From assembly GCA_030603395.1 (NCBI GenBank), contig JAUVXX010000005.1, positions 885-64,884 of the forward strand: a stretch of DNA of 64,000 nt, read 5' to 3'. Origin of the DNA: a bacterium (GTDB lineage: Bacteria; Patescibacteriota; Minisyncoccia; Minisyncoccales; CG1-02-41-26). The position numbers and the translations under genes were made by a program. This document shows, piece after piece, positions 775-63,413 of this stretch (its first letter is position 1; each line of letters opens with the position of its first letter). Under the pieces are notes generated by a model that saw only the letters and a program-made list of their open reading frames with translations, was not told the origin of the DNA and did no database searches.

Positions 775-2907
775 TTAATTAGGCCAGGTTTCAATCATCA
801 GGCATTTTTTCTTATTTTTCAGAGGCAATTTTTGATAGATTTCCTCGGTCACAAACGGCATAAAGGGATGCAAAAGTTTAAGGGAGGTTAGGAGAACGTA
901 GTATAAAATTTTCTGGGTATTCTCTTTAGTTTTGACATTTGACATTTGGCTTTTGGATTTCTCTATGTACTTGTCGCAAAAATCATGCCAGAAAAAATGA
1001 TATAAAGTTTGGGCTGCCTGACCAAACCTGAAATTTTCCAAATCTTTGTTAACCGATTTAATTGTCTTCTCAAGAACTTTCAATATCTTCTTATCAGCTC
1101 CAGTTAAATTTTTATCAGTTCCAATCAGCTTTTTATCAGTGTTAATCAGCGGCGGTTTATTCATTAGAATAAACCTCGTGGCATTCCAAATCTTATTAGA
1201 AAACTTTCTCTGACCGATTATTTTTTCTTCTGAGATTATAGTATCTTTACCAGAGCCAGTGCCAAAAACCAAAGCCATACGTAAAGCATCTGTTCCGTAA
1301 AGAGTAATTACGCCTAATGGGTCAATGACATTACCTTTTGATTTTGACATTTTTTGTCGGTCTTTATCTCTGACTAAGCCATGCAGATAAACATAACGAA
1401 AAGGTGCTTTTCCGGTACAGTAGATTCCCAACATAATCATCCTGGCCACCCAGAAGAATAGAATATCCCAGCCGGTCTCCATCACACTAGTGGGATAAAA
1501 ATATTGAAAATCTTTAGTTTGTCTGGGCCAGCCAAAAACAGTGAAGGGCCATTGACCAGAAGAGAACCAGGTGTCAAGAGTGTCAGGATCTTGTTTTAAT
1601 TTTTTACCTTTGCATTTTGGACAGGATTTTGGTTTTTCAATATCTACTGTTATTTCTCCACATTCACAATACCAAACAGGTATTCTGTGGCCCCACCAGA
1701 TTTGTCTTGAGATACACCAATCTCTAATGTTTTTCATCCAGTGATAATACAGTTTCTTGTAATGGGTGGGGATAAATTCTATTTTTTTGTCTTCCACTGC
1801 TTTTATGGCAGGAGCTGCTAATTTTTTAGCCCTGATAAACCATTGTTCAGAAATTAATGGTTCAATAATAGTTTTGCATCGTTCACAAATCGCTATACGA
1901 TGTTTGTAATTAAAATCAATTTTTTCCATTAAGCCCATTTTTTCCAAGTCTTTAGCAATTATCTTTCTTGCTTCCCTTACCTTCATTCCAGCATATTTGC
2001 CGGCTTTTTTATTGAGTTTACCGTCAAAGCCAATAACCTGGCGAATTTCTAAGTTGTGCCTTTGTCCAATCTCAAAATCATTAGGGTCATGAGCTGGCGT
2101 TACTTTTACTACTCCTGTTCCGAATTCAGGGTCAACTGCTTTATCAGCAACAACTTTGACTTCAGCTTTGCCTAAAACTGTTTGGATCTCAATTTCTTTT
2201 CCAACATATTTTTTATACCTTTTGTCAGCTGGGTGAACAGCTACTGCTGTGTCGCCAAATTTTGTTTCTGGTCTGACGGTAGCTAAAGTTAAAGGCCCAT
2301 ACTTTATATAATAAAGAGGGTCTTTTTTTTCTTGGTAAATCACCTCTAAATTGGAAAGGGCTGTTTGGCATCTGGGACACCAGCTTATAATTCGTTTGCC
2401 TCGATAAATAAGACCATCTTTATACATTTTTTTAAAGGTGTAAAAGACAGCTTTACTGATTTTTGGATCCAGGGTAAATTTTGAACGACTCCAGTCACAG
2501 CTAGCCCCCAACTTGCGCAACTGGGTTTCCATTACTTTTTTGTTCTCCATTGAAAATTTATAAGTTTGTTTATAAAATTCCTCTCTACCCAACTTCAATC
2601 TTGATTTACCTTGTTTAGCTAACTTTTTTTCGTAAGTCACTTGAGTCATAATGCCGGCATGGTCAGCTCCAGGCAGCCACAAAACTTCTTTCCCTTTCAT
2701 TCTTTGATAACGAGTCATAATATCTTCCAAGGTAACAAAAACAGCATGGCCAATATGTAAAATTCCATTGGCATTTGGCGGGGGCATAATAATGCAAAAA
2801 GGCTGTTTTTTGCTTTTTGGACTTGCTTTTAGAAATCCTGATTTTTCCCAGAGCTGGTAAATTTTATCTTCTACCTGTTTTGGATTGTAAGTTTTAGAAA
2901 TTTTCAT
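775..2907 (-). CDS. valS: valyl-tRNA synthetase, short form lacking the C-terminal coiled-coil
   Basis: 710-aa ORF; PPPNANGILHIGHA (HIGH) and KMSKSKGN (KMSKS) class I motifs; CP1 editing segment TPAHDPNDFEIG; ends ...ETWPN. Confidence 0.9.
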   Translation of the reverse strand: MKISKTYNPKQVEDKIYQLWEKSGFLKASPKSKKQPFCIIMPPPNANGILHIGHAVFVTLEDIMTRYQRMKGKEVLWLPGADHAGIMTQVTYEKKLAKQGKSRLKLGREEFYKQTYKFSMENKKVMETQLRKLGASCDWSRSKFTLDPKISKAVFYTFKKMYKDGLIYRGKRIISWCPRCQTALSNLEVIYQEKKDPLYYIKYGPLTLATVRPETKFGDTAVAVHPADKRYKKYVGKEIEIQTVLGKAEVKVVADKAVDPEFGTGVVKVTPAHDPNDFEIGQRHNLEIRQVIGFDGKLNKKAGKYAGMKVREARKIIAKDLEKMGLMEKIDFNYKHRIAICERCKTIIEPLISEQWFIRAKKLAAPAIKAVEDKKIEFIPTHYKKLYYHWMKNIRDWCISRQIWWGHRIPVWYCECGEITVDIEKPKSCPKCKGKKLKQDPDTLDTWFSSGQWPFTVFGWPRQTKDFQYFYPTSVMETGWDILFFWVARMIMLGIYCTGKAPFRYVYLHGLVRDKDRQKMSKSKGNVIDPLGVITLYGTDALRMALVFGTGSGKDTIISEEKIIGQRKFSNKIWNATRFILMNKPPLINTDKKLIGTDKNLTGADKKILKVLEKTIKSVNKDLENFRFGQAAQTLYHFFWHDFCDKYIEKSKSQMSNVKTKENTQKILYYVLLTSLKLLHPFMPFVTEEIYQKLPLKNKKKCLMIETWPN
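931..947. repeat. tttgacatttgacattt, short relative of the tsaD 31-nt repeat, inside valS
   Basis: direct reading; encodes SQMSNVK on coding strand. Confidence 0.8.
1088..1150. repeat. 3 x 21-nt tandem repeat inside valS (LINTDKK/LIGTDKN/LTGADKK)
   Basis: units 1088-1108, 1109-1129, 1130-1150; units 2 and 3 differ at 3 of 21 nt. Confidence 0.8.
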
Positions 2908-4007
2908 GATATTCTTAAATTAGCCTCAGCTTTGATTTTTTGCCAATTTTTTGAAGCTTCTTTTCTGCGGAAATAAGCTGTTATGCCAATCATGACTGCG
3001 TTGTCGGTGCAGAATTGGATATTAGGTGTTAGATATTGGATATTGGGAATTTCTTTTTTAATTTTTTCTTTGAGTTGTTTTCGCAGTTCATTGTTGGCGG
3101 TCACCCCTCCACCAAGCACTATACTTTTTGCCTTGCAATCCTTGGCTGCTTTGATAGTTTTTTTGATTAAAACATCAATAATCGCCTGCTGGATTTTCTT
3201 GGCCATCTCTCTAACATATTCTTTTGAAGCTCTCACTTTTTTTGACCTCTTTTTAAACTCGTATAGAACAGCAGTTTTGAGTCCAGAAAAAGAGAAATCG
3301 TAATCTTTACTATTTATCATCGGCCGTGGCAACTTTGTTCGATATTTCGCTGTCGCTTCAGGCGACTCCCCGTAGGGTCCTATTTCGACATTTCGACATT
3401 TCGCTGCTGCAGCCGCTATGGCGGGTCCTCCCGGATAGGGGAGGCCCAAAACTCTGGCTGTTTTGTCAAAACATTCTCCGGCTGCGTCATCCCTGGTTTC
3501 ACCAATAATTTTGTATTTACCAATATCATTCATCAAAATCAATTGAGTATGCCCACCACTCACCACCAAGCACACAGCCGGAAAGATTTGACATTTGAGC
3601 TTTGACATTTGACATTTGCCAACAAAGTTGGCAAAGATGTGTGCTTCCATGTGATTAACAGGAATAATCGGCAGGTTCCTTTGTTGAGCTAAATCTTTGG
3701 CAAAATTTATCCCGGTCCATAAACACGGTTCAAGCCCCGGTCCAATCGTTACTGCCACAGCGTCAATTTTCGGTTTCTTAGCTTTATTTAAAGCTTTTTT
3801 AAGCACCACTGGCAGATTCTTTTGGTGTTCTCTTTTAGCCAAACTTGGATAGACCCCTCCGTATTTTTGGTGAATTTTCACTTGCGAGGAAACAACGTTT
3901 GAGAGGATTTCAAATTTAGCATTTTTGACATTTGAGCTTTGACATTTGACATTTAGTATACTTATGCAGGTATCGTCACACGAAGTGTCAATGGCTAAGA
4001 TAATCAT
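2904..4007 (-). CDS. tsaD: tRNA N6-adenosine threonylcarbamoyltransferase TsaD (Kae1/Gcp family) with three in-frame inserts
   Basis: 367-aa ORF; ILAIDTSCDDT, VSGGHTQL, GLPYPGGP, DFSFSGLKTAV family motifs; 4-nt overlap with valS. Confidence 0.9.
   Translation of the reverse strand: MIILAIDTSCDDTCISILNVKCQSSNVKNAKFEILSNVVSSQVKIHQKYGGVYPSLAKREHQKNLPVVLKKALNKAKKPKIDAVAVTIGPGLEPCLWTGINFAKDLAQQRNLPIIPVNHMEAHIFANFVGKCQMSKLKCQIFPAVCLVVSGGHTQLILMNDIGKYKIIGETRDDAAGECFDKTARVLGLPYPGGPAIAAAAAKCRNVEIGPYGESPEATAKYRTKLPRPMINSKDYDFSFSGLKTAVLYEFKKRSKKVRASKEYVREMAKKIQQAIIDVLIKKTIKAAKDCKAKSIVLGGGVTANNELRKQLKEKIKKEIPNIQYLTPNIQFCTDNAVMIGITAYFRRKEASKNWQKIKAEANLRIS
3344..3406. repeat. 9-nt direct repeats (atttcgctg) 54 nt apart, bounding a GC-rich core inside tsaD
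   Basis: atttcgctg at 3344-3352 and 3398-3406. Confidence 0.85.
3587..3617. repeat. 31-nt repeat tttgacatttgagctttgacatttgacattt, copy A (in tsaD)
   Basis: identical to 3924-3954. Confidence 0.95.
3924..3954. repeat. 31-nt repeat tttgacatttgagctttgacatttgacattt, copy B (in tsaD, different frame)
   Basis: identical to 3587-3617. Confidence 0.95.
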
Positions 4008-4110: not shown

Positions 4111-4183
4111 GGCCCTGTCGTCTAGTGGTTTAGGACGTCGCGCTTTCAATGCGAAAACACGGGTTCGATTCCCGTCAGGGCCA
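4111..4183 (+). tRNA. tRNA-Glu (anticodon UUC)
   Basis: hand-folded cloverleaf: acceptor GGCCCTG/CAGGGCC, anticodon loop CTTTCAA, T arm ACGGG-TTCGATT-CCCGT; no encoded CCA. Confidence 0.9.
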
Positions 4184-4192
4184 CTTTTAAAT

Positions 4193-5745: not shown

Positions 5746-7902
5746 TTATTCCAGATGGATTCTTTTTTTGAACTTTTTTAATCTCTCTTTCAAAGGGGAG
5801 TATTTTTTTAGGTCGGGGTCCTCGGCTAAAAGTTCTTGGGCTGCCTGTCGGGTTTTTTCAACCAAGGGGAGGTTTTTTAAATTCTCCATAGCCAAATCAG
5901 GAATTCCCCACTGTTTCACTCCCGACAAACTTCCCGGACCCCGGATTTCCAAATCTTTTTGAGCTAATTCAAAGCCATTCTCTGTTTTGACAATTGCCTC
6001 CAATCTTTGGCGAGTTTTTCTGGCAGGAGAGTCGGTGAACAAAAAGCAATAAGATTGCACGTTTGCTCGGCCAACTCTTCCCCGAAATTGATATAGTTGA
6101 GCCAGGCCAAATCTTTCAGCCCCTTCAATCATCATCACGGTGGCTCCCTGAATATCAATACCAACTTCAACCACCGAGGTTGAAACCAAGATGTCAATCT
6201 TTTTATTTTTAAAATCTTTCATTATCTTTTCTTTTTCTTTTGTTTTCATTCTGCCGTGCAGCATTCCTACTTTCAGCTCAGGAAAAATCTCTTTCCGCAA
6301 TTTTTCGTATTCCTCTTTAACCGCTTTTGCTTCAGCCCACCCCAAAATATCTTTCTCTCCTTTTTTGTCTTTCTCAGCTTGATTGTTTCCAGCTTCAATC
6401 CGGGGGCAAATGACAAATACCTGATTGCCAAGTTTTACCTGCTCTTTTATAAAATCGTAAGCTTTATTTCTGTCTTCGGGAGGGATGACCTTGGTAATTA
6501 TTTTTTTCCTTCCCTTGGGCATTTCATCTAAAATTGATAAATCCAAATCCCCATAAACCGTTAAAGCCAAAGTTCGGGGGATAGGAGTGGCGGTCATTGA
6601 TAGCAAATGAGGAATAAGTTTTTCTTCTCCGGCGCGACTCGTGCTAAGTTTAGCTCGCTGCTCCACCCCAAAGCGGTGTTGCTCATCAATAATACAAAGG
6701 GCTAAATTTTTAAACTTCACTTTATCCTGAATTAAAGCATGGGTACCGATCAAGATGTCAATTTCTCCCTTCCTTGCTTTATCCAAAAGTTTTTGTCGAG
6801 AAATTTCCAAAATCTCATTTTCCAGTTTTTGAGCAACAATTTTATCTTCCTTACCGGTCAAGAAAGCAATTTTTACCTTAAAAGGTTTTAACAGTTTTAT
6901 TACCTCTTGAAAGTGCTGTTTGGCTAAAATCTCGGTTGGCGCCATAAAAGCTGTCTGGAAACCTGCCTTAACCACATTTAAGGCAGCTATTACTCCCACC
7001 ACGGTCTTGCCCGAACCAACATCACCTTCCAAGAGGCGCGACATTGGTCTTGGTTTTTCCAGGTCCTTTAAAATCTGCCAGGTGCATTTTTTTTGAGCGT
7101 CCGTCAGTTTAAAAGGTAAAAAGCTGACAAATTCTTTAGTTAACTCAACATTTAAGGGGATGGCCGGAGCTTTTTCTTTATTCAATCTCAATCTTTCTTT
7201 TAAAACCGAAAGCTCAATTAAAAAAAGTTCCTCAAAAGAAAAACGAGCCCTGGCTTTTTCTGCTTGAGCGACTGAATCGGGGAAGTGAACTTGCCAAATC
7301 GCCTGTTTAATTGGTAAGAAGTTTTCAGCTTTAATTATTTTTTCTGGCAGAATCTCCGGGATTTTGTTTTTAAATTCTAAAAGTAGGGGTTTTAAGATAT
7401 AGCGGAGCCAGCGAGAGGACAAACCTTCTGTTTCAGGGTAAACCGGGACAAGCCGTCCAGTATGAGTTAAACTCGATATTTCGATATTTCGAAATGTCGA
7501 TATTTTTTCATAAGCCGGGTTAGACAAGAAAATTCCCTTGTCTCCAAAACTAACTTTGCCAGCCAGACAGACCACATCACCTTGCTTTAAGGTTTTTATC
7601 AGATAGGGTTGATTGAACCAAACAACCTTAATGGCTGATGAGTTGTCTTGAACAATGGCTTGGGTCAAAATCATTCTTCTTTTCCAGGTTCTTGAGCTTT
7701 TAATCTCTAAAATTTTTCCCAAAACACAGCAGGTCTCATTTAATTTAACCTTGGCAATGGGAATGATATCTGAAAAATCCTCATAACGATAAGGAAAATG
7801 CCTGAGTAAGTTCTCCACCGTCTTTATGCCCATTTTTCCAAGTTTCCTCAAAAAACTCGGTCCAACCCTGGAAATTTCTTTAATTGAAGTATCTAAGTCC
7901 AT
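5746..7902 (-). CDS. recG: ATP-dependent DNA helicase RecG
   Basis: 718-aa ORF; GDVGSGKT (Walker A), DEQHRFG (DEQH box), QLRGRVGR-like QFRGRVGR motif VI. Confidence 0.92.
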   Translation of the reverse strand: MDLDTSIKEISRVGPSFLRKLGKMGIKTVENLLRHFPYRYEDFSDIIPIAKVKLNETCCVLGKILEIKSSRTWKRRMILTQAIVQDNSSAIKVVWFNQPYLIKTLKQGDVVCLAGKVSFGDKGIFLSNPAYEKISTFRNIEISSLTHTGRLVPVYPETEGLSSRWLRYILKPLLLEFKNKIPEILPEKIIKAENFLPIKQAIWQVHFPDSVAQAEKARARFSFEELFLIELSVLKERLRLNKEKAPAIPLNVELTKEFVSFLPFKLTDAQKKCTWQILKDLEKPRPMSRLLEGDVGSGKTVVGVIAALNVVKAGFQTAFMAPTEILAKQHFQEVIKLLKPFKVKIAFLTGKEDKIVAQKLENEILEISRQKLLDKARKGEIDILIGTHALIQDKVKFKNLALCIIDEQHRFGVEQRAKLSTSRAGEEKLIPHLLSMTATPIPRTLALTVYGDLDLSILDEMPKGRKKIITKVIPPEDRNKAYDFIKEQVKLGNQVFVICPRIEAGNNQAEKDKKGEKDILGWAEAKAVKEEYEKLRKEIFPELKVGMLHGRMKTKEKEKIMKDFKNKKIDILVSTSVVEVGIDIQGATVMMIEGAERFGLAQLYQFRGRVGRANVQSYCFLFTDSPARKTRQRLEAIVKTENGFELAQKDLEIRGPGSLSGVKQWGIPDLAMENLKNLPLVEKTRQAAQELLAEDPDLKKYSPLKERLKKFKKRIHLE
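7473..7504. repeat. 4 x 8-nt tandem repeat (tcgatatt tcgatatt tcgaaatg tcgatatt) inside recG
   Basis: direct reading; encodes STFRNIEISS. Confidence 0.85.
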
Positions 7903-13428: not shown

Positions 13429-15156
13429 ATGGACCTTATTTCTCAATTAGTTAAACAAAGAAAATTAAAGAAAAGAGAGGGAGCTCAGTTGAAGATGGAA
13501 GCCAAGGAAAAAGAAAAGACCCAAGAGGAGTTAATTTTAGAGAAGAAAATTTTATCGGAGAATGCCCTATTTCAACTCAAAAGCAAACTGACCGGAACTC
13601 CTCTGCGAGAAACTCTGCCAGAGAAAATTCCCCCCGAGATTTTAAATATTATCCCCAGAGAGTCAGTGGAATATTATAAAATAGTCCCCCTGCTTTTAAG
13701 AAAAAAAGAAGAGGTTTTGGAGGTAGGCATGGTTTACCCTGATGACCCTAAAGCAGTGGAGGCCTTAAAATTTTTAACCAGGCAGCAAAAGTTACATCCC
13801 AAAATTTTTCTAATCACTTTCTCTAATTTCAGAAAATATCTTGAGCAATTCCGAGCTCCCAAAAAGGAAGTAGAGAAAGCTTTGGAAAGATTGGAAGAAG
13901 AAATCAGACCGGAAGGGGGAAAAGCCATAAAGAAAGCCGAATTTGAGAAATTGGTTGAGGAAGCTCCGGTTATCAAAATGGTAGGGGTTATTTTGCGCCA
14001 AGCTATTGAAGGCAAGGCTTCTGATATTCACATTGAGCCGACCAGGGAGAACGTCAGAGTCAGATACCGCTTAGATGGAATTTTGCACTCCTCCCTTATT
14101 TTGCCCTTAAAGGTTTTGCCAGCCATCGTGGCTCGCATTAAGATTCTAAGCCGGCTTAGAATTGACGAAACCAGAATTCCCCAGGACGGTAGGTTCTCTG
14201 CCAAGATTGGAGAGAAAACCATTGACTTTCGAGTTTCCACTTTTCCCACCACCTTGGGGGAGAAGGTAGCTATTAGAGTTCTTGATCCCACCGAGGGTCT
14301 AAAATCTTTAATTGATTTGGGTTTGAGTGAGAGAAATTTTAAGGTGGTCAAAGAAGCCGTCAAAAAGTCCTACGGCATGATTTTAGCTACCGGTCCCACT
14401 GGCTCCGGAAAAACCACCACCTTGTATTCACTTTTCCAGCTTTTAAACAAAGAAGGAGTGAACATTGTTACTTTGGAAGACCCGGTAGAGTATTTTATTG
14501 ACGGGGTTAACCAATCCCAGATTAGACCAGAAATTGAATATACCTTTGCCAAGGGTTTGCGGCAGATTGTCAGACAAGACCCTGATATTATTATGGTAGG
14601 GGAGGTTCGAGACGAAGAGACGGCCGCCTTAGCCATTCATGCTGCTTTAACCGGCCATTTGCTTTTGTCAACTTTGCACACCACCAATGTCCTTGGGGTT
14701 ATTTCTCGGTTAATTGATATGGGAGTGAAGCCATTTCTTATTCCTCCCACCTTGAGTTTAGCCATAAGCCAGAGATTGGTCCGTGCCCTTTGCCCTTTCT
14801 GTAAAAAGAGAGTGAGGGCTCAGGGAGAAGCAAAAGATTATATCTTAAGCAAACTTAAAAATTTACCAGCCAGTGTAGCTGAGAAAGTCAGGGTTGGCAA
14901 GACCATCTTTATCTATCAACCCCAGGGTTGCAAAAAATGTAATTCCAAGGGATATTCGGGAAGAACCGGAGTTTATGAAGTTATCAAAATGACCGATGCC
15001 TTGGCTGAAATAACCATTCAAAATCCAACTGAAAGTCAGATTCTAAAAGAGGCAAGAGCCCAGGGCATGGTTACCATGGAAGAAGAAGGGGTGTTAAAGG
15101 TTTTAAAAGGCATTACTTCCCTGGAGGAAGTGATGAGGGTTGCGGAAGAAAAGTAA
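13429..15156 (+). CDS. pilB: type IV pilus extension ATPase PilB (GspE family)
   Basis: T2SSE N-domain, Walker A GPTGSGKTTT, Asp/His boxes, tetracysteine CPFC...CKKC; ORF track opens at 13300 but ATG 13429 avoids overlap with upstream ORF. Confidence 0.9.
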   Translation: MDLISQLVKQRKLKKREGAQLKMEAKEKEKTQEELILEKKILSENALFQLKSKLTGTPLRETLPEKIPPEILNIIPRESVEYYKIVPLLLRKKEEVLEVGMVYPDDPKAVEALKFLTRQQKLHPKIFLITFSNFRKYLEQFRAPKKEVEKALERLEEEIRPEGGKAIKKAEFEKLVEEAPVIKMVGVILRQAIEGKASDIHIEPTRENVRVRYRLDGILHSSLILPLKVLPAIVARIKILSRLRIDETRIPQDGRFSAKIGEKTIDFRVSTFPTTLGEKVAIRVLDPTEGLKSLIDLGLSERNFKVVKEAVKKSYGMILATGPTGSGKTTTLYSLFQLLNKEGVNIVTLEDPVEYFIDGVNQSQIRPEIEYTFAKGLRQIVRQDPDIIMVGEVRDEETAALAIHAALTGHLLLSTLHTTNVLGVISRLIDMGVKPFLIPPTLSLAISQRLVRALCPFCKKRVRAQGEAKDYILSKLKNLPASVAEKVRVGKTIFIYQPQGCKKCNSKGYSGRTGVYEVIKMTDALAEITIQNPTESQILKEARAQGMVTMEEEGVLKVLKGITSLEEVMRVAEEK

Positions 15157-15532
15157 TTTTGTGAAACAAATTCTCTTAATTGAAGATGACCCGTTTTTGA
15201 TAGATATTTATAGCCAAAAATTGACCAAAGCCGGATTCAAAGTTGAGGTAGCCAAAAATGGAAAAAGCGCTCTGCAATCTCTCCGAGAGAGAAAGCCCCA
15301 GCTGGTAATCTTAGATATTGTTTTACCGGGGATTGAAGGCTGGGAGATTCTAAGAAAAATCAAAAAAGACCGTAGCTTAACTGGTTTAAAAGTAGTGGTG
15401 CTGAGTAATTTGGGACAGAAAGAGGAGGTGGAGAAAGGATTGAAATTGGGGGCAGTCAAATATTTAATTAAGGCTCACTATACCCCGGGCGAGGTCGTCA
15501 GGGAAATAGAAAAAGTCATAACTAATTCTTAA
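15140..15532 (+). CDS. stand-alone response-regulator receiver domain (CheY-like)
   Basis: 130-aa ORF; IEDD acidic pocket, LDIVLPG phospho-acceptor Asp context, VLSN, KYLIK. Confidence 0.85.
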   Translation: MRKKSNFVKQILLIEDDPFLIDIYSQKLTKAGFKVEVAKNGKSALQSLRERKPQLVILDIVLPGIEGWEILRKIKKDRSLTGLKVVVLSNLGQKEEVEKGLKLGAVKYLIKAHYTPGEVVREIEKVITNS

Positions 15533-15536
15533 ATCA

Positions 15537-16607
15537 ATGAACTATCCAACTCAACTCAAAAGACTTTTGGGGCTGGCTATCAAGAAAGAGGCCTCTGACC
15601 TCCACCTTTCGGTCGGTCACCCGCCAGTTTTGAGAATAATTGGCAACTTGTCTAATGTTGAGGGGGAAGGGGTGATCACTCCCAAAGATTCTCAAGGACT
15701 CGCTCTCAGCTTAATGGTACCTTCGCAGCAAGAAAAATTTTTAAAAGAAAAAGAAATAGATTTTGCTTATGAATTTGAAAAGAAAATCAGGTTCAGGGTA
15801 AATGCCTTTTTTCAGAGGGGATATGTCAGTATTGCTTTAAGGCTTATTCCTTCAAAAATCAAAACTATTGAGGAATTAAAGCTCCCGCCTATTTTACATA
15901 AATTTACCGAAGCTCCCCAGGGATTTGTTTTAATCACCGGAGCTTCCTCTCAGGGAAAATCTACCACTTTGGCTGCCTTAATTGATGAAATAAACCATCA
16001 GCGGAGGGAACATATCATTACTATTGAAGACCCCATTGAGTATGTCTTTCAGGGCGACAAATGTTTAATTGACCAAAGGGAGGTTGGGGTAGATACGCCA
16101 AGTTTTGCCAAAGCCCTGAGGTCCACCTTGCGGGAGGATCCGGATGTCATTATGGTTGGAGAGATGAGGGACCTTGAAACCATCTCAACCGCCATCACCG
16201 CAGCCGAAACCGGTCACCTTGTTTTTGCCACCTTGCATACCAATTCTGCCTCACAAACCATCCATCGAGCCATTGATGTTTTTTCTCCCCACCAACAAAA
16301 TCAGATAAGAGCTCAATTGTCGGGCTCTCTGTTGGGAGTGGTCTCTCAAAGATTGCTGCCTTCAATTAAGAAAGAGTTTGTGCCGGCTTGTGAGATTATG
16401 TTGTCTAATCATGCCGTGGCTAATTTAATTCGGGAGAACAAAATCCATGAGATTCCTTCCGTCATTGAAACTTCAGGGGAGATGGGAATGATTCCCTTCA
16501 ATAAGTCCTTAACCGAATTGGTCAGGAAAAAAGAAATTTCAAGAGAGACCGCCCTGCAATATTCCTTCAGCCCCAAGGATTTAGAAGCCCGACTCGAAAA
16601 AGCATGA
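15537..16607 (+). CDS. pilT: type IV pilus retraction ATPase PilT
   Basis: 356-aa ORF; Walker A GASSQGKSTT, TIEDPIEY, GEMRD, HLVFATLHT motifs. Confidence 0.9.
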   Translation: MNYPTQLKRLLGLAIKKEASDLHLSVGHPPVLRIIGNLSNVEGEGVITPKDSQGLALSLMVPSQQEKFLKEKEIDFAYEFEKKIRFRVNAFFQRGYVSIALRLIPSKIKTIEELKLPPILHKFTEAPQGFVLITGASSQGKSTTLAALIDEINHQRREHIITIEDPIEYVFQGDKCLIDQREVGVDTPSFAKALRSTLREDPDVIMVGEMRDLETISTAITAAETGHLVFATLHTNSASQTIHRAIDVFSPHQQNQIRAQLSGSLLGVVSQRLLPSIKKEFVPACEIMLSNHAVANLIRENKIHEIPSVIETSGEMGMIPFNKSLTELVRKKEISRETALQYSFSPKDLEARLEKA

Positions 16608-17824
16608 AATTTGCCTACAAAGCCAGAACCAAAGAGGGAAGAATTCAGAGAGGAACCATTGAGGCCTCTTCTCGTAAAGTTTGCCTTAGTATCCTGGAAA
16701 AATATGGATTTTACGTAACTTCCTTGCGGGAGGCAGGAAAGGGAGGATTTTTGATGGGAAAGATTTCTCTGCGAAAAACATCCGCCAAAGATATTGTCAG
16801 CTTCAGCCGTCAATTCTCAGTGATGCTAAAATCCGCCATTCCTCCGGTTGAGGCCTTGCGGGCTCAGGTGGCTCAGACGGAAAACCCGGTTTTTCGAGAG
16901 AAAATTTTAAAAATGGCAGAGACAGTGGAGACCGGAAGCACGCTTTCGCAGGCCTTTTCTCTCCATCCAAATATCTTTGACCCTTTTTTTATAAACATAG
17001 TCAAATCTGGAGAGGCGACCGGTAAGGTGGCCGACTCCCTGGATTATTTAGCCAACCATTTAGAATCAGAATACAATCTTTCGCAGAAAATAAGGGGAGC
17101 CATGATTTATCCTGCTTTTGTGATTGTGATTTTTATTGCCGCCTTCTTTTTGGTAACTTTTTTCATTGTTCCCCGATTGACTGAAGTTTTAGAGTCCTTT
17201 GGAGGAAAACTTCCCCTAAGCACAAGGTTGCTAATCCTTCTATCCGACTTTGTCAGGAAAGGCGGTTGGGTTGTTATCCTTGTCGTTTTTGGCTCATTAT
17301 TTTTTATTCCCCAGTATCTCAAGGGGTCTCCGAAGAGTAAAAATTTTTATGATAGAATTTCTCTGAAAATACCAATCCTGGGAGATTTTTATAAGAAAAT
17401 TTATCTTGTTCGCTTTTGTGAAAACCTTTCGGTGTTAATTAGAGCCGGCTTGCCCATAACTCAAGCTCTGAAAATAACCGAAGGAATCATAGGCAGCGAA
17501 GTTTACAAAAAAATTATCATTGAGGCGCAGGAAAGAGTAGCTCGGGGGGAGAAGATAAGTTCTGTCTTCTCGCAATATCCACAATACGTCACCACCTTCA
17601 CCACTCAAATGATTTCAACCGGAGAAGAAACCGGGAAGTTAGAACAAACCCTGATGAACGTGGTTAGTTTTTATCGAGCAGAAATAGAAAGGGCTGCTGA
17701 CAACCTGACCAGTATTTTAGAGCCACTTTTAATTGTGATTTTGGGAATTGGCATAGCCGTAATGGCAGTTTCAATTTTTATCCCTTTATTTCAAATGGGA
17801 ATGGGAGGCTTTGGAGCAATGTGA
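16604..17824 (+). CDS. pilC: type IV pilus platform protein PilC (GspF family)
   Basis: 406-aa ORF; two GspF repeats, three TM segments. Confidence 0.88.
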   Translation: MKFAYKARTKEGRIQRGTIEASSRKVCLSILEKYGFYVTSLREAGKGGFLMGKISLRKTSAKDIVSFSRQFSVMLKSAIPPVEALRAQVAQTENPVFREKILKMAETVETGSTLSQAFSLHPNIFDPFFINIVKSGEATGKVADSLDYLANHLESEYNLSQKIRGAMIYPAFVIVIFIAAFFLVTFFIVPRLTEVLESFGGKLPLSTRLLILLSDFVRKGGWVVILVVFGSLFFIPQYLKGSPKSKNFYDRISLKIPILGDFYKKIYLVRFCENLSVLIRAGLPITQALKITEGIIGSEVYKKIIIEAQERVARGEKISSVFSQYPQYVTTFTTQMISTGEETGKLEQTLMNVVSFYRAEIERAADNLTSILEPLLIVILGIGIAVMAVSIFIPLFQMGMGGFGAM

Positions 17825-17827
17825 AGC

Positions 17828-17908
17828 GTTTTGTCCAAGAGCGCAAGTCGCACGTAGCGCGATTGGCAACAAAACCTTTACCCCGCACATAAAGCGTTAT
17901 GTGCGGGG
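17828..17908 (+). other. GC-rich structured element (two stable hairpins) between pilC and the first pilin gene
   Basis: imperfect hairpin 17828-17875 (7+4+4 bp); perfect 11-bp stem ccccgcacata/tatgtgcgggg at 17881-17908. Confidence 0.5.
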
Positions 17909-17953
17909 TGTAAGAACTTGTAACGCTCCTTCGTCGCTAACAATTTCTAACAC

Positions 17954-18415
17954 ATGAAAAACAAAGGGTTCACTTTAATTGAATTATTGGTGGTTCTGGT
18001 TATTATTGGAATTTTAGCTTCAATTGTTTTGGTTCAATTTCCCGAGGCCATCAGGAGAGCCAGAGATGGTCGGGTTATTTCTGATATGGGTCAATTTAGA
18101 ACCCAAACCATAATTTTGTATAGCACCCAAGAAAGTTATGCTCAAGTTAATTGTACTGTTATAGGAACCCTATGCGATTGCTTGGATTCTACCATTGAGT
18201 ATCTCTGTAATGATATTGAACAAAATATTGCCCAGGGAGATGATTTGGTAACTTATGTTCAAAGTGATGGTCAGGGGTTTTGTGCGGCAGTTCATTTAGG
18301 GGGTTCTGGCAGATATTTTTGTGTAGATGGAGAATTACACGCCAAAGAATACGAAACTTTTCCTAACTTTTGCTTTCCTTCTTGTGAAATAATGAATAAT
18401 TGCAGTTGTGAATAA
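17954..18415 (+). CDS. type IV pilin, Cys-rich (10 Cys)
   Basis: class III signal MKNKG|FTLIELLVV with Glu+5. Confidence 0.88.
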   Translation: MKNKGFTLIELLVVLVIIGILASIVLVQFPEAIRRARDGRVISDMGQFRTQTIILYSTQESYAQVNCTVIGTLCDCLDSTIEYLCNDIEQNIAQGDDLVTYVQSDGQGFCAAVHLGGSGRYFCVDGELHAKEYETFPNFCFPSCEIMNNCSCE

Positions 18416-19082: not shown

Positions 19083-19892
19083 ATGTTTTATTTCATCATT
19101 TTTGTTTTCGGGGCCTGCATAGGTAGTTTTTTAAATTGTGTAATTTACCGATTAAAAGAAAAACAAAGTTTTCTCTCCGGCACGTCTTTTTGTCCCAAAT
19201 GCCTTCATCAATTAGGTTTCTTTGATTTAATTCCAGTGTTAAGTTTTATCTTCTTGAAGGGAAAATGTAGATATTGCGGCCAGAATATCTCTACTCAGTA
19301 CCCACTTGTCGAAATAGCAACAGGTGGGCTATTTCTCCTAATTTTCAATTTTCAACAGTTCAGCCCTGAGTTCACTGCCGAAGGGTTTTCAATTTTCAAT
19401 GAATTTTCAATTTTCAATTTTAAAAATTTTATTACCACTCTTTATTTATTAATAATCAGTTGTCTTTTAATCATCATTTTCGTCTATGATTTAAAACATT
19501 ATATTATTCCGGATAAAATAGTTTATCCGGCCATTGCCACTGCATTAATTTTCAATTTTCAAAAAACGACTTTTGGCTCCTCGCTCTTAGCAGGGGGAGG
19601 GGCAGCTTTATTCTTTTTCTTGTTGTGGCTGGTATCTCGCGGCAAGTGGATGGGTTTGGGTGACGCCAAATTGGCATTTCTGATGGGGCTTTTTCTGGGC
19701 TCACCAAATATTTTAACAGCCGTGTTCTCAGCTTTTTTAATCGGTGCTATAATGGGAATAGTATTGGTAATGTTTGGTAAGAAAACCCTAAAGAGCCAGG
19801 TTCCTTTCGGACCTTTTCTGGTGGTGGGAACGTTTATTGCTCTTTTTTGGGGACGAGAAATAATTAAGTGGTACTTAGGTCTTGTAACCTAA
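19083..19892 (+). CDS. pilD: prepilin peptidase PilD (A24 aspartic peptidase)
   Basis: N-terminal CPKC...CRYC Zn motif; catalytic contexts DLKHYIIPD and GLGDAKL. Confidence 0.9.
   Translation: MFYFIIFVFGACIGSFLNCVIYRLKEKQSFLSGTSFCPKCLHQLGFFDLIPVLSFIFLKGKCRYCGQNISTQYPLVEIATGGLFLLIFNFQQFSPEFTAEGFSIFNEFSIFNFKNFITTLYLLIISCLLIIIFVYDLKHYIIPDKIVYPAIATALIFNFQKTTFGSSLLAGGGAALFFFLLWLVSRGKWMGLGDAKLAFLMGLFLGSPNILTAVFSAFLIGAIMGIVLVMFGKKTLKSQVPFGPFLVVGTFIALFWGREIIKWYLGLVT
19341..19421. repeat. attttcaattttcaa copies flanking a GC-rich core inside pilD
   Basis: copies at 19341-19355, 19386-19399, 19402-19421 (a fourth at 19547-19562); core cagttcagccctgagttcactgccgaaggg at 19356-19385. Confidence 0.85.
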
Positions 19893-21799: not shown

Positions 21800-24915
<3,116 letters not shown>

Positions 24916-35479: not shown

Positions 35480-36408
<929 letters not shown>

Positions 36409-46086: not shown

Positions 46087-47415
46087 CTAAGATTTATCTC
46101 TTAAGTCAATAAGTTGTAGTTTTCGATGATATTTTATGGCGAAGCGGTGAGCTTCATCTCTGATGTGTAAAAGCAAGTTGGAAATTTCCTGAGGAAGATT
46201 TTTTAACAAAATTGGTCTTTTCCGACCTTCAATATAAAGTTCATTTTTTCTTTTGGCTAAAGCTAAGACGCTGATAGACGCTGATAGACGCTGATAATGC
46301 TGATTTAGAATATTTATAGCTGCGTTCAACTGAGCTTTTCCTCCATCAATAAGCATTACCTGGGGAAATTTCCATTCCGGGTGATTGAAGCGGCGGGAAA
46401 TTATCTCTTTTAACATGGCGATATCATTCGGCTCTTTTAAAATTTTTATCTTGAATTTCCGATATTCCTTTTTGTCAGGTTCTCCCTTTTCAAAAACTAT
46501 CATTGCCCCGGTGGCCTTTTTTCCTTGAATATTGGAAACATCATAACCCTCAATTCTTAAGATTTTCTTTTTTACGCCCAAAATCTTTTTAAGGAGTTTC
46601 TCAATTTCTGGCCAGTTTTTCGGTGCTGGCTCAACCAAACCTTGAAAAACTCGAGCCTGCTCAAAAACATTGTTCAGGGCCTCAATTTGGTCTCGCAATC
46701 TGGCTGCTCTTTCAAACTCCTGTTTTTGAGAAGATTTTTTCATTTCTCTTTTTAAATCAATCAGGACTTGAGTTTTCTTTCCCTGAAGGACTTTTATTAA
46801 ATTCTTTGTATTTCTTTGCGACTCTCTTTTAATTTTTCCCTTCAATCCCGGGAGTTGCTTGGCTAAGCTAAGCAACAGGGTGCACGGTCCCGGGCAACGA
46901 TTGAGCTGGTACCAGAGGCAAGCTCTCTTAGGAATTCTTTTGCAAGAGCGATAGGGGAAAGCTCGGCGTAGAATTTTTAGGGTCGCTTTCAATGCTTTAC
47001 CGTCAACAAACGGCCCCAGGTAGTTAGTTTTTAGTTTATAGTGAGTAGTTGATAGTTTTGTCTGGTGGGTGATAAATATCCTCGGGAAATCTTCCTTGGT
47101 TATTCCCACAAAAAAATAATTCTTGTCATCTCGCCACAAAATATTGAATTTGGGCTGCTTTTCTTTGATTAAATTTGCTTCCAAAATTAAGGCCTCAATC
47201 TCTGAGTCGGTTTTAAGATAGCCGATTTTTTTAACGTCTCCGATAAAAAGCTTGTCTCGGAAGCCATTCTTGCGAAAATGATTTTTCACCCTTTCTCTAA
47301 TGTTGCCAGCTTTACCAATATACAGAATTTCTCGCCCTCTTTTAAAAAGATAAACCCCCGGTGCTTTGGGCAGAGAAGAAACTTTCTTTTTATCCAAGTA
47401 CCTAAACCTTGCCAT
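46087..47415 (-). CDS. uvrC: excinuclease ABC subunit C, short form without C-terminal (HhH)2
   Basis: 442-aa ORF; GIY-YIG (GVYLFKRGREILYIGKA), UVR domain, endonuclease region IDGGKAQL...RDEAHRFAI. Confidence 0.88.
   Translation of the reverse strand: MARFRYLDKKKVSSLPKAPGVYLFKRGREILYIGKAGNIRERVKNHFRKNGFRDKLFIGDVKKIGYLKTDSEIEALILEANLIKEKQPKFNILWRDDKNYFFVGITKEDFPRIFITHQTKLSTTHYKLKTNYLGPFVDGKALKATLKILRRAFPYRSCKRIPKRACLWYQLNRCPGPCTLLLSLAKQLPGLKGKIKRESQRNTKNLIKVLQGKKTQVLIDLKREMKKSSQKQEFERAARLRDQIEALNNVFEQARVFQGLVEPAPKNWPEIEKLLKKILGVKKKILRIEGYDVSNIQGKKATGAMIVFEKGEPDKKEYRKFKIKILKEPNDIAMLKEIISRRFNHPEWKFPQVMLIDGGKAQLNAAINILNQHYQRLSASISVLALAKRKNELYIEGRKRPILLKNLPQEISNLLLHIRDEAHRFAIKYHRKLQLIDLRDKS
46267..46305. 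repeat. 3 x 10-nt tandem repeat gacgctgata plus a degenerate fourth unit, inside uvrC
   Basis: units at 46267, 46277, 46287; encodes QRLSASISV. Confidence 0.9.
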
Positions 47416-62135: not shown

Positions 62136-63413
62136 TTACTTCTTGCCGTTGCTGTGATTCTTACCGTTCTTACCGTTCTTACCGTTCTTGCCATTCTTGC
62201 CATTTTTGCCATTCTGGTGGTTGGTGTAGGCTTTTTTATAAACCCTTATGTATTTTTGGGCAATTTTTTTCCAGGTAAATTTTCTTTCAACAGTTTGCCT
62301 GGCAGCTTCCCCCATTTTTTTTCTCAATTCATCATTTGCCAACAATTTATTTACCGCTTCGGCTATTTGTTGACTGCTTCTTGGTCTGACCAGGAATCCA
62401 TTTACCCCATTTTTCACTGCCAAAGGAATTCCCCCTTTTCTGGTTGCCACCACCGGGGTTTTACAACTCATAGCTTCCAAAATTACCAGGCCTAACGGCT
62501 CGTCCCAAACAGAAGGAGTAACAAGAACATCAGCTCGGTAATAAAATTCTTTAAATTCCTCTTTCTTGTCATCTCCCATATAGCCGAGAAAATGAACATT
62601 TCCTGCGTTGAGTTTATAGCTTAAGTCCTCCAGGTTTTTCATTTCTGGGCCGTCTCCAATAATATAAATGTGTCCCTTGATGTCTTTAGCCGCTTTTAGG
62701 AGATATTGAACCCCCTTTTGGGGAGTGAGTTTTCCGGAAAAAAGAATGACTTTTTTGTTTTTTAATTTGTATTTTTTATTGATAATCTTTATTTTTTTCT
62801 CCGGAGGAAATCTTTCAATATCAATACCGCCCGGAATAATCCCCATCTTATGAGAAAATTCTTTGCCAAAAGTTTCTAACAACCACCGCTTGGTGTCTCC
62901 GCTTACCGCCAATATTTTTTTTGCTCTTCCTAGAGCATCTTGAGATGAGGGAACAAAAACTTTATTCTGGGAAGCGGCTAAAATGCCTGTTCCGTGGGAG
63001 GTGACGATAAAGTTTATACCGTATAATGTTTTTATAAAATTTGTCACCCAGCTAAGCAAAGAAATATGCTGGACATGAATCAGGTCTGGCTTAAAATCAT
63101 CTACTGCCCGAACCACGCTTCTTAAAAAGAAATTAAAAACCTGAGATACCTCTTTCGGGGTGAGGTCTTGATAAAGCTTACAGACCGGCCATTCCGGGTG
63201 GCCGGTGAAAGCAACGGGAAAAGGTAGTTCCAAGGGATAAATTTTCAATCCGGCAATTTTTTCTTTACTTTCCGGGCAAACAATGGCTGTTTTTATCTTT
63301 TTGGCTTTGTTAATTTCAGCGGCTAATTCTCTGGTATAAGCTCCAGAACCACATCCCCACAAAGGAAAACATTGCAGAAACAGAACTTTATTTATTTTCG
63401 GCTTTTTAGCCAT
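62136..63413 (-). CDS. family 4 glycosyltransferase with C-terminal (NGK)6 repeat tail
   Basis: 425-aa ORF; EPLGLVILEAMSCKTPVVA; tail HQNGKNGKNGKNGKNGKNGKNHSNGKK. Confidence 0.85.
   Translation of the reverse strand: MAKKPKINKVLFLQCFPLWGCGSGAYTRELAAEINKAKKIKTAIVCPESKEKIAGLKIYPLELPFPVAFTGHPEWPVCKLYQDLTPKEVSQVFNFFLRSVVRAVDDFKPDLIHVQHISLLSWVTNFIKTLYGINFIVTSHGTGILAASQNKVFVPSSQDALGRAKKILAVSGDTKRWLLETFGKEFSHKMGIIPGGIDIERFPPEKKIKIINKKYKLKNKKVILFSGKLTPQKGVQYLLKAAKDIKGHIYIIGDGPEMKNLEDLSYKLNAGNVHFLGYMGDDKKEEFKEFYYRADVLVTPSVWDEPLGLVILEAMSCKTPVVATRKGGIPLAVKNGVNGFLVRPRSSQQIAEAVNKLLANDELRKKMGEAARQTVERKFTWKKIAQKYIRVYKKAYTNHQNGKNGKNGKNGKNGKNGKNHSNGKK
62160..62213. repeat. 6 x 9-nt tandem repeat encoding (NGK)6
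   Basis: cttaccgtt x3, cttgccatt x2, tttgccatt. Confidence 0.92.

Follow-up and report, generated by a model that had tools for sequence, protein, structure and literature searches.

We analyzed a 64,000-nucleotide stretch of contig JAUVXX010000005.1 (GenBank assembly GCA_030603395.1, positions 885 to 64,884 of the forward strand) from a bacterium assigned to Patescibacteriota, Minisyncoccales, CG1-02-41-26. This whole stretch, hereafter the window, has a G+C content of 39.6% and is ~92% coding. An exact 31-nucleotide sequence (31-mer), TTTGACATTTGAGCTTTGACATTTGACATTT on the plus strand, occurs twice within its minus-strand gene tsaD. The gene and the two copies are arranged as follows.

2904-4007, minus strand: tsaD open reading frame (ORF) of 367 amino acids, which hosts both copies of the 31-mer and three further short-period arrays
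3587-3617, minus strand: copy A of the 31-mer, decoded as KCQMSKLKCQ(I), in TsaD loop 2 directly before VSGGHT
3924-3954, minus strand: copy B of the 31-mer, decoded as (L)NVKCQSSNVK(N), in loop 1 of TsaD, which is the beta-hairpin turn that follows DTSCDDT

The ORF was identified as TsaD by its best database matches, which are Patescibacteria TsaD proteins with domain PF00814 (including its twin at NCBI, P0001), and it matches the solved TsaD from T. maritima (6NAK) with an E value of 1e-70. The NCBI protein P0001, at 312 amino acids, is without the first 55 residues, among them DTSCDDT and copy B; this short form looks like the result of a mis-called start. An alignment of 22 TsaD sequences, comprising the window protein and 21 orthologues, reveals that both 31-mer sites are hypervariable loops. 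Relative to 6NAK, the window protein is longer by 10 and 6 residues at the two sites. Both sites lie in lower-confidence surface segments of an AlphaFold2 model with a mean predicted local distance difference test (pLDDT) score of 78, where the corresponding 10-residue blocks score 63 and 56. A preliminary description of this DNA had placed the repeats just after DTSCDDT and just before VSGGHT, and the alignment to the orthologues and the solved protein bears this out and reveals variable connectors at both places.

The two copies are identical at every position and are read in frames offset by one, exactly as first described. The first coding-strand base of copy A occupies codon position 1 (GKCQMSKLKCQIF), that of copy B occupies codon position 3 (LNVKCQSSNVKNAKF), and the copies are spaced 337 nucleotides (3n + 1) apart. 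No match to the 31-mer arose in 100 dinucleotide shuffles of the window, and the window contains no further copies at up to three mismatches.

On its sense strand, the 31-mer reads AAATGTC AAATGTC AAAGCTC AAATGTC AAA. Tandem Repeats Finder (TRF) returns a period of 7 at both sites, with 4.4-4.7 copies and 83-84% matches, and the repeat is thus a head-to-tail run of heptamers whose unit is TTTGACA on the plus strand. The octamer unit TGACATTT that had been proposed earlier is ruled out by TRF and by self-comparison, both of which give period 7; period 8 in the window is limited to the CGACATTT and CGATATTT arrays. Three AAATGTC units span 21 nucleotides, or seven codons (KCQMSNV), and every frame of such an array encodes this same cyclic heptapeptide in a shifted register, as is seen in both copies. 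The sense strand is stop-free in all frames, whereas the antisense strand has a TGA in each unit, and the same asymmetry holds for AATTTTC, AAGTTTC, AAATCTC, and AAAGCTC. Arrays of at least three units can therefore survive within an ORF only when sense-oriented. Frame independence had been taken as an argument for a DNA-level process; the use of two frames is real, but it is less surprising than it appeared because a heptamer array encodes one cyclic peptide, without stops, in all frames. The observed units also have a TCAA core in common, which is present in just 13% of stop-free AT-rich heptamers. The rarity of this core indicates that the units are a related family, beyond leftovers of stop avoidance. 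The 31-mer is accordingly 4.4 units of a heptanucleotide tandem array and belongs to a widespread family of NNTCAAA heptamer arrays.

We compared both loops among TsaD orthologues. The closest relative, P0002 (87% amino acid identity), carries neither array; relative to P0002, the window has an additional 21 nucleotides in loop 1 and 18 nucleotides in loop 2, and the idea that both inserts equal three heptamers holds for loop 1 alone. More distant orthologues do carry the arrays. At loop 1, the L094 orthologue matches copy B at 31 of 31 positions, P0004 has a pure (AAATGTC)4.4 array, and P0003 has the same array split by a 30-nucleotide GC-rich hairpin precisely at the odd GCT unit. At loop 2, P0009 matches copy A at 30 of 31 positions at the same site (GTTC for GCTC), and P0004 has an array with the length and register of the window array in which the variable NN dinucleotides are mostly TC (TG/TG/GC/TG in the window). 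P0003 and P0032 instead have a near-identical AATTTTC tract in loop 2, with both array and flanks shared. Loop lengths differ by three units (loop 1) and 18 nucleotides (loop 2) against P0002, and by 12-15 nucleotides among other orthologues.

The window tsaD is only 74% identical in nucleotide sequence to that of L094 or P0009, with a third-position identity of 54%, whereas the array tracts with their flanks are ~95-100% identical. Ten identical third positions would be expected by chance with a probability of ~0.002. Because each copy is shared with a different lineage (loop 1 with L094, P0003, and P0004; loop 2 with P0009 and P0004) despite near-saturation of synonymous sites elsewhere in the gene, a fresh intragenic duplication is ruled out as the origin of the two copies. 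Each window copy is rather a near-consensus copy common to another lineage. These comparisons also bear on the explanation that the duplicated 31-mer is an assembly or sequencing artifact. Short repeats can mislead assemblers, and the window derives from a metagenome-assembled genome (MAG), but the ORF is open, all TsaD motifs are kept, and other organisms, assembled independently, show each copy again (L094, L182/P0009, L001, L002). We therefore give this explanation practically no weight.

The neighborhood of tsaD is itself uneven in its relationships. Between positions 775 and 4192, the window ValRS is 96% identical to that of L001 and the adjacent TsaD is 77-82% identical; the C-terminal third of the window TsaD is closer to P0002, and the neighboring tRNA-Glu genes differ strongly from L001. 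Taken together, these sequence relationships suggest recombination mosaicism around tsaD.

The preliminary description had called for a search for copies beyond tsaD, and such copies are numerous. The 17-mer AAATGTCAAATGTCAAA is present at no fewer than 119 loci, at least, of species-representative genomes from many phyla, taxon labels of MAG contigs being used here as given in the records. Among the matches listed, the array in loci labeled Patescibacteria is often within long ORFs in sense orientation, and loci with other labels are mostly intergenic; in the unit that follows the 17-mer, the first two bases vary (GC, GT, AT, GG, CG, and others) and TCAAA is constant. The exact 31-mer itself is carried by the L094 tsaD, by the spacer between rnc and rpsP in L055, and by 56 metagenome contigs, which have ~44 distinct flanks; most copies are non-coding. 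Viral contigs gave no match to AAATGTCAAATGTCAAAGYTCAAATG.

Several exact copies are translated within other proteins. One is read in the frame NVKCQSSNVK within a Beta-lactamase2 domain protein, another in the frame KCQMSKLKCQ within a HypF Kae1-like domain protein, and a third lies in a UDP-glucose dehydrogenase-like protein, in its C-terminal tail. A further copy forms a stop-free linker (MSNVKAQMSN) that joins QueH to a 23S-rRNA intervening-sequence protein (IVP). Together with TsaD, these registers demonstrate that all three frames are used in nature. The QueH linker is found in L137, L145, and L152 (at ~5121-6074 in L137), where the array unites QueH and the 23S-rRNA-intervening-sequence four-helix-bundle protein in one ORF of 318 amino acids; stop-free heptamer arrays can thus create apparent gene fusions.

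These proteins allow a judgment on protein-level adaptation, in which K/Q/S/N/C-rich loop peptides would be selected for TsaD function or partner interaction. The inserts are indeed in frame, and several orthologues have them at the same two loops. However, the same DNA is read in three peptide registers in unrelated proteins and also occurs in non-coding sequence, loop content is radically different among close orthologues and absent in the closest, synonymous positions are conserved, and model confidence in the loops is low. Such adaptation is very improbable. The arrays are DNA-level repeat sequence and not selected peptides, and the 31-mer is held near a common form across lineages and contexts. 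The earlier preference for a DNA-level process over protein-level selection is upheld by the occurrence of the same 31 nucleotides in unrelated genes, intergenic sites, and taxa, as well as by the conserved synonymous positions.

In most of the 56 contigs, the 31-mer is the 5' arm of an imperfect intergenic hairpin of 115-135 nucleotides. This arm reads AAATGTC AAATGTC AAAGCTC AAATGTC AAAT(C/G)A AATCC AAAGCYC AAATGTC AAA and is followed by a short loop; the 3' arm is conserved (...ATTTGNNATTTGGATTTTGNNATTTGGATTT) and contains TTTGGAT/TTTGACA units. The minimum free energies are ~-33 to -52 kcal/mol, with a z-score of -5.7 for the L055 element. The arms pair in blocks of 5 bp (UCAAA against UUUGG or UUUGA, G.U pairs among them), and 2x2 internal loops at the NN positions separate the blocks. 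The hairpins occupy spacers whose flanking genes are co-directional or convergent, lie in either orientation, and are rare between divergent genes.

A covariance model built from 20 elements recovered further hairpins that do not contain the exact 31-mer, with several on a single contig; the 14.8 kb of L157 hold three, and two or more were found in each of L133, L134, L128, and L179. Its members lie in loci labeled Komeili-, Uhr-, Falkow-, Davies-, and Parcubacteria and also in loci labeled Thermodesulfobacteriota, Syntrophaceae, delta-proteobacterium (a 751-kb contig), and Omnitrophota. The hosts range from 37 to 57% G+C, and the element has ~25% G+C. Searches of Rfam 15 returned only sub-threshold miRNA-hairpin look-alikes for the hairpins and, at the gathering threshold, only tRNAs for the window.

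Variants of the hairpin family were also observed. A second conserved flavor, ...TCTCAAAACTCAAATGTCAAATGTCAAAACTACAACTCAA/TTAA, is present in L064, L067, L086, L093, L111, and L114, which differ in phylum label, and it also forms hairpins in L093 and L086. In L127, L146, L149, and L171, the 31-mer is followed by TGGCTGATGAGTAATGRCAAAGG and CACGAAC-like heptamer runs, with no hairpin arm. The hammerhead-like CTGATGAG beside these four copies is unsupported as a ribozyme, as Rfam finds none. L149 additionally contains a selenocysteine insertion sequence (SECIS) element and a match to the glycine riboswitch that stays below threshold (67 bits versus a gathering score of 110), which together hint at hosts outside the candidate phyla radiation (CPR) for this contig group.

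The conserved hairpin raises the question of a selected nucleic-acid signal, which could be a site for a DNA- or RNA-binding protein that recognizes units at 7-nucleotide spacing, an antisense promoter cluster (three TTGACA -35-like hexamers on the plus strand), or an RNA hairpin arm. Several features are consistent with such a signal. The arrays are more strongly conserved in nucleotide sequence than the gene around them, conservation of the intergenic hairpin covers both arms and even non-complementary positions, the pairing includes G.U pairs, and the intergenic spacer position would suit a terminator or processing site. In addition, TAACTGA heptamer repeats have been proposed elsewhere as regulator binding sites (PMC4679880). 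Against this explanation, the RNA structure of the tsaD copies alone is no better than that of shuffled sequences (z = 0.04 and 0.51), the intergenic elements take either orientation with respect to flanking genes, and the closest relative P0002 does without both arrays. By eye, with no formal count, one variable paired position in alignment A6 shows no consistent covariation. Finally, TTGACA is not enriched in the window: TTGACA and TGTCAA together have 50 sites per 64 kb on both strands, compared to ~40 expected. Overall, a selected signal appears quite improbable. The same count led us to reject a motif resembling a DNA uptake sequence or uptake signal sequence, as the unit is enriched as arrays only.

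Heptamer arrays are in general more frequent in this DNA than expected. The window contains 12 exact arrays with a period of 7 and more than two copies, compared to 1.1-1.2 expected and a maximum of 4 in 100 order-3 Markov simulations, whereas periods 5 and 6 are near expectation. The period-7 excess is at least ~7-fold in relatives L001, L002, L180, L181, and L182; heptanucleotide simple sequence repeats (SSRs) are thus over-represented in the window and in all five. The other short-period arrays and associated elements considered here are the following.

931-948, minus strand: (AAATGTC)2.6 array of 17-18 nucleotides in valS, peptide SQMSNVK
3014-3046, minus strand: degenerate heptamer array, AATATCC-type in sense, encoding PNIQYLTPNIQ near the TsaD C-terminus
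3350-3380, minus strand: small GC-rich hairpin element, GGACCCTACGGGGAGTCGCCTGAAGCGAC in sense, encoding GPYGESPEA and nested between the octamer units of TsaD loop 3
3382-3403, minus strand: octamer array (CGAAATGT) of 2.8 copies in TsaD loop 3, peptide KCRNVEI
7473-7505, minus strand: octamer array (AAATATCG-type) in recG, peptide FRNIEISS
19340-19355, 19386-19400, 19402-19421, and 19547-19562, plus strand: four AATTTTC arrays in ORF 19083-19892, peptides IFNFQ and FSIFNEFSIFNF
23585-23613, plus strand: (AAGTTTC)4.1 array in ORF 21800-23827, read as ligA

The ORF at 19083-19892 was read by eye as prepilin-peptidase-like, and its AATTTTC array type is the one that also fills TsaD loop 2 in P0003 and P0032. 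The heptamer arrays in tsaD, valS, this ORF, and ligA are all sense-oriented and lie in apparent linkers or loops. The relative in valS that the preliminary description had pointed out is present and encodes SQMSNVK, but it is not a length insertion, since the orthologue in L002 has equal length; we regard it as an old or converted array. The variant arrays previously noted in tsaD and recG are likewise present and have period 8. We also considered a phase-variable contingency locus and rejected it, as the hosts are housekeeping genes (tsaD and the ORFs read as valS, recG, and ligA) and all observed alleles are in frame.

This general enrichment is one of the arguments for purely local microsatellites, which would have arisen by in-place slippage from a proto-unit and been kept alike by concerted slippage, with no dispersal and with identity due to chance or intragenic gene conversion. 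Consistent with such an origin, loop 2 of P0002 holds a single proto-unit TTCCAAA, the window and P0004 arrays are equal in length and register and unlike in NN, the NN dinucleotides after the 17-mer vary freely in many genomes, and a single base separates loop 2 from P0009. Slippage alone, however, predicts neither the identity of the 31-mer across contexts nor identical tracts in orthologues. In ~44 unrelated contexts from several phyla as labeled, the 31-mer recurs exactly and with its unit variants in the same order; the partner 3' arm is conserved in sequence too; and array tracts are identical between orthologues near synonymous saturation. These observations argue against a purely local origin, which we consider unlikely.

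We favor an explanation in which arm-only copies of the hairpin family sit in two surface loops of essential TsaD and related arrays in loops of other housekeeping genes. Other copies probably served as the source from which these were introduced or refreshed. This may have happened by insertion of a transposition-like kind or else by short-tract recombination or gene conversion, perhaps between lineages and perhaps after DNA uptake. Replication slippage could afterwards alter and homogenize the units within an array, which would explain same-register arrays that differ solely in their NN dinucleotides. Under this proposal, the identity of the two window copies would require merely that both be near the consensus, and one T-to-C change or one conversion event may separate loop 2 from the P0009 version. 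The arrays survive in ORFs because their sense strand is stop-free in every frame and because they are placed in variable loops. For TsaD, the inserts are most likely neutral passengers.

A number of observations weigh against copying between sites. There are only two exact 31-mers in the 64-kb window, and one exact 31-mer per long metagenome contig is usual. The taxon labels from MAG contigs, on which the breadth of dispersal depends, are a further point of caution. GCTCAAA is one of several common variants after AAATGTCAAATGTCAAA, and some convergence is possible. The same-register loop 2 arrays with different NN dinucleotides look like in-place concerted evolution more than repeated insertion. 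The loop 2 insert of 18 nucleotides is no multiple of 7, and the insertion boundaries relative to the empty-site relative are unclean. Pattern searches, inverted-repeat searches, and the covariance model detected no full hairpin in the window, and relatives L001, L002, and L180-L182 contain none either. No target-site duplication is visible in the listed flanks of the 31-mer contigs, and no terminal inverted repeat or associated transposase came to light, as far as either could be tested. The missing target-site duplications and terminal inverted repeats, the unclean boundaries, the 18-nucleotide loop 2 insert, and the lack of a full element in the window argue against a classical transposon. 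A bolder form of the copying explanation, in which a tiny heptamer-array element spreads horizontally among Patescibacteria and unrelated phyla of anaerobes (Desulfobacterota-like, Omnitrophota) by a dedicated enzyme or by templated repeat addition or conversion, folds into REP-like hairpins between genes, and repeatedly writes its stop-free arm into surface loops of essential proteins, is one that we entertain only tentatively. If real, such an element would generate loop cassettes in genomes that are reduced.

The repeat resembles several known systems in behavior only and does not appear to be a sequence member of any of them. Rickettsia palindromic elements (RPEs), reportedly described by Ogata et al. 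in 2000, are dispersed Rickettsia repeats that lie in frame within genes, including essential ones, at surface positions, are present or absent among orthologues, and occur between genes as well. The likeness lies in a repeat family that is found both intergenically and in frame in protein genes at surface positions: the TsaD copies are surface-loop inserts that are dispensable in orthologues, and the 31-mer is in frame in several unrelated conserved domains (TsaD twice, Beta-lactamase2, and HypF Kae1-like). RPEs, however, are whole palindromes of 100-150 bp in Rickettsia, whereas here a 31-nucleotide single arm of a heptamer array is found in Patescibacteria and other phyla.

Cyanobacterial short tandemly repeated repetitive (STRR) heptamers and small dispersed repeats (SDRs), reportedly the work of Mazel in 1990 and of Elhai et al. 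in 2008, comprise scattered tandem heptanucleotides and elements of 21-27 nucleotides within arrays. The likeness, in Nostoc, is that small elements are reported to sit within heptamer arrays, as do the nested GC-rich hairpins at 3350-3380, in P0003 loop 1, and in L006. The STRR units and taxa are different, and STRRs are mostly intergenic, in contrast to the present arrays, most of which belong to coding loops in a genome that is 92% coding and which form long hairpins in other genomes. The STRR and SDR work is cited in PMC3116915.

The TAACTGA heptamer direct repeats of Beggiatoaceae, Cyanobacteria, and Bacteroidetes have a patchy cross-phylum spread that suggests horizontal transfer (MacGregor 2015, PMC4679880). 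They contain stops in all frames in one orientation and in the other occasionally lie in ORFs, where they encode a cyclic heptapeptide (PMC4679880). Patchy cross-phylum occurrence, orientation-dependent stops, and ORF copies with a cyclic heptapeptide are thus common to both systems. TAACTGA repeats have their stops in the "forward" orientation, are located mainly just upstream of start codons, and have their ORF copies mostly at protein termini (PMC4679880); the present family instead forms inverted-repeat hairpins and has copies inside conserved domains of essential genes. Repetitive extragenic palindromic (REP) sequences, bacterial interspersed mosaic elements (BIMEs), REP doublets forming hairpins (REPINs), and elements like miniature inverted-repeat transposable elements (MITEs) are similarly short multi-copy imperfect palindromes in co-directional or convergent spacers in both orientations (PMC3116915), and the hairpin family likewise consists of dispersed extragenic palindromes placed in spacers. 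REP sequences are usually species-specific and tied to a REP-associated tyrosine transposase (RAYT) (PMC3116915), unlike the periodic heptamer arms described here, which occur in several phyla as labeled. The G-rich heptamer SSRs of Xanthomonas and Nostoc also display a genome-wide excess and a preference for approximately four copies, but they form G-quadruplexes, are GC-rich, and show under-representation within coding regions (Rehm et al. 2015, PMC4692102).

The earlier remark that no described element was known to behave in this way must therefore be qualified: RPEs, STRRs and SDRs, and TAACTGA repeats are precedents, and this particular family appears to be undescribed. Among the papers found by our literature search, none contains the repeat strings and none links SSRs and CPR. 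Three traits distinguish the family, namely single heptamer-array arms in genes, a location inside conserved domains of essential genes, and presence in several phyla as labeled. The periodic hairpin of 115-135 nucleotides, which is absent from Rfam and the literature searched, is a candidate for a new family of small elements, either mobile or regulatory.

Additional repeats in the window and its relatives were noted. In TsaD loop 3 (3338-3406), a AAATGTCG octamer array is broken by a 30-nucleotide GC-rich hairpin. Relatives of this GC-rich element at 3350-3380 are the insert that splits the P0003 loop 1 array and an insert in the loop of the L006 intergenic hairpin; L056, L148, and L170 contain further nested hairpins that are GC-rich. 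At 16 of 17 positions, a 17-base part of the GC-rich insert agrees with the reverse-complemented 3' end (acceptor and T-stem) of the L001 tRNA-Glu. This tRNA gene adjoins tsaD in L001, and the insert does not match the tRNA-Glu of the window itself (4111-4184). The period-8 array in recG is partly palindromic (TCGATATTTCGAAATGTCGA) and forms a small inverted repeat within coding sequence. A period-10 array, AGACGCTGAT x4 at 46266-46304, lies in the minus-strand ORF 46087-47415 and has a unit that is no multiple of 3. Two period-9 arrays, at 35596-35649 (CTTGTGGGG x6) and 62157-62215 (ATTCTTACC x6.6), presumably encode in-frame tripeptide repeats. In L180, the contig of P0032, positions 14218-18147 encode a GyrA of 1309 amino acids with an intein (PF14890).

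Odd insertions in the proteins of CPR bacteria, or Patescibacteria, are well known. Our analysis identifies one concrete DNA-level source of such insertions: stop-free heptamer arrays in the loops of essential genes. Near-identical array cassettes are probably exchanged between lineages that are otherwise saturated at synonymous sites. The arrays distort gene calling (as in the NCBI TsaD model cut to 312 amino acids), alignments, and phylogenies, and they fuse neighboring ORFs, as exemplified by QueH-IVP. If a mobilizing mechanism exists, this family would add to the known examples of mobile DNA of very small size.

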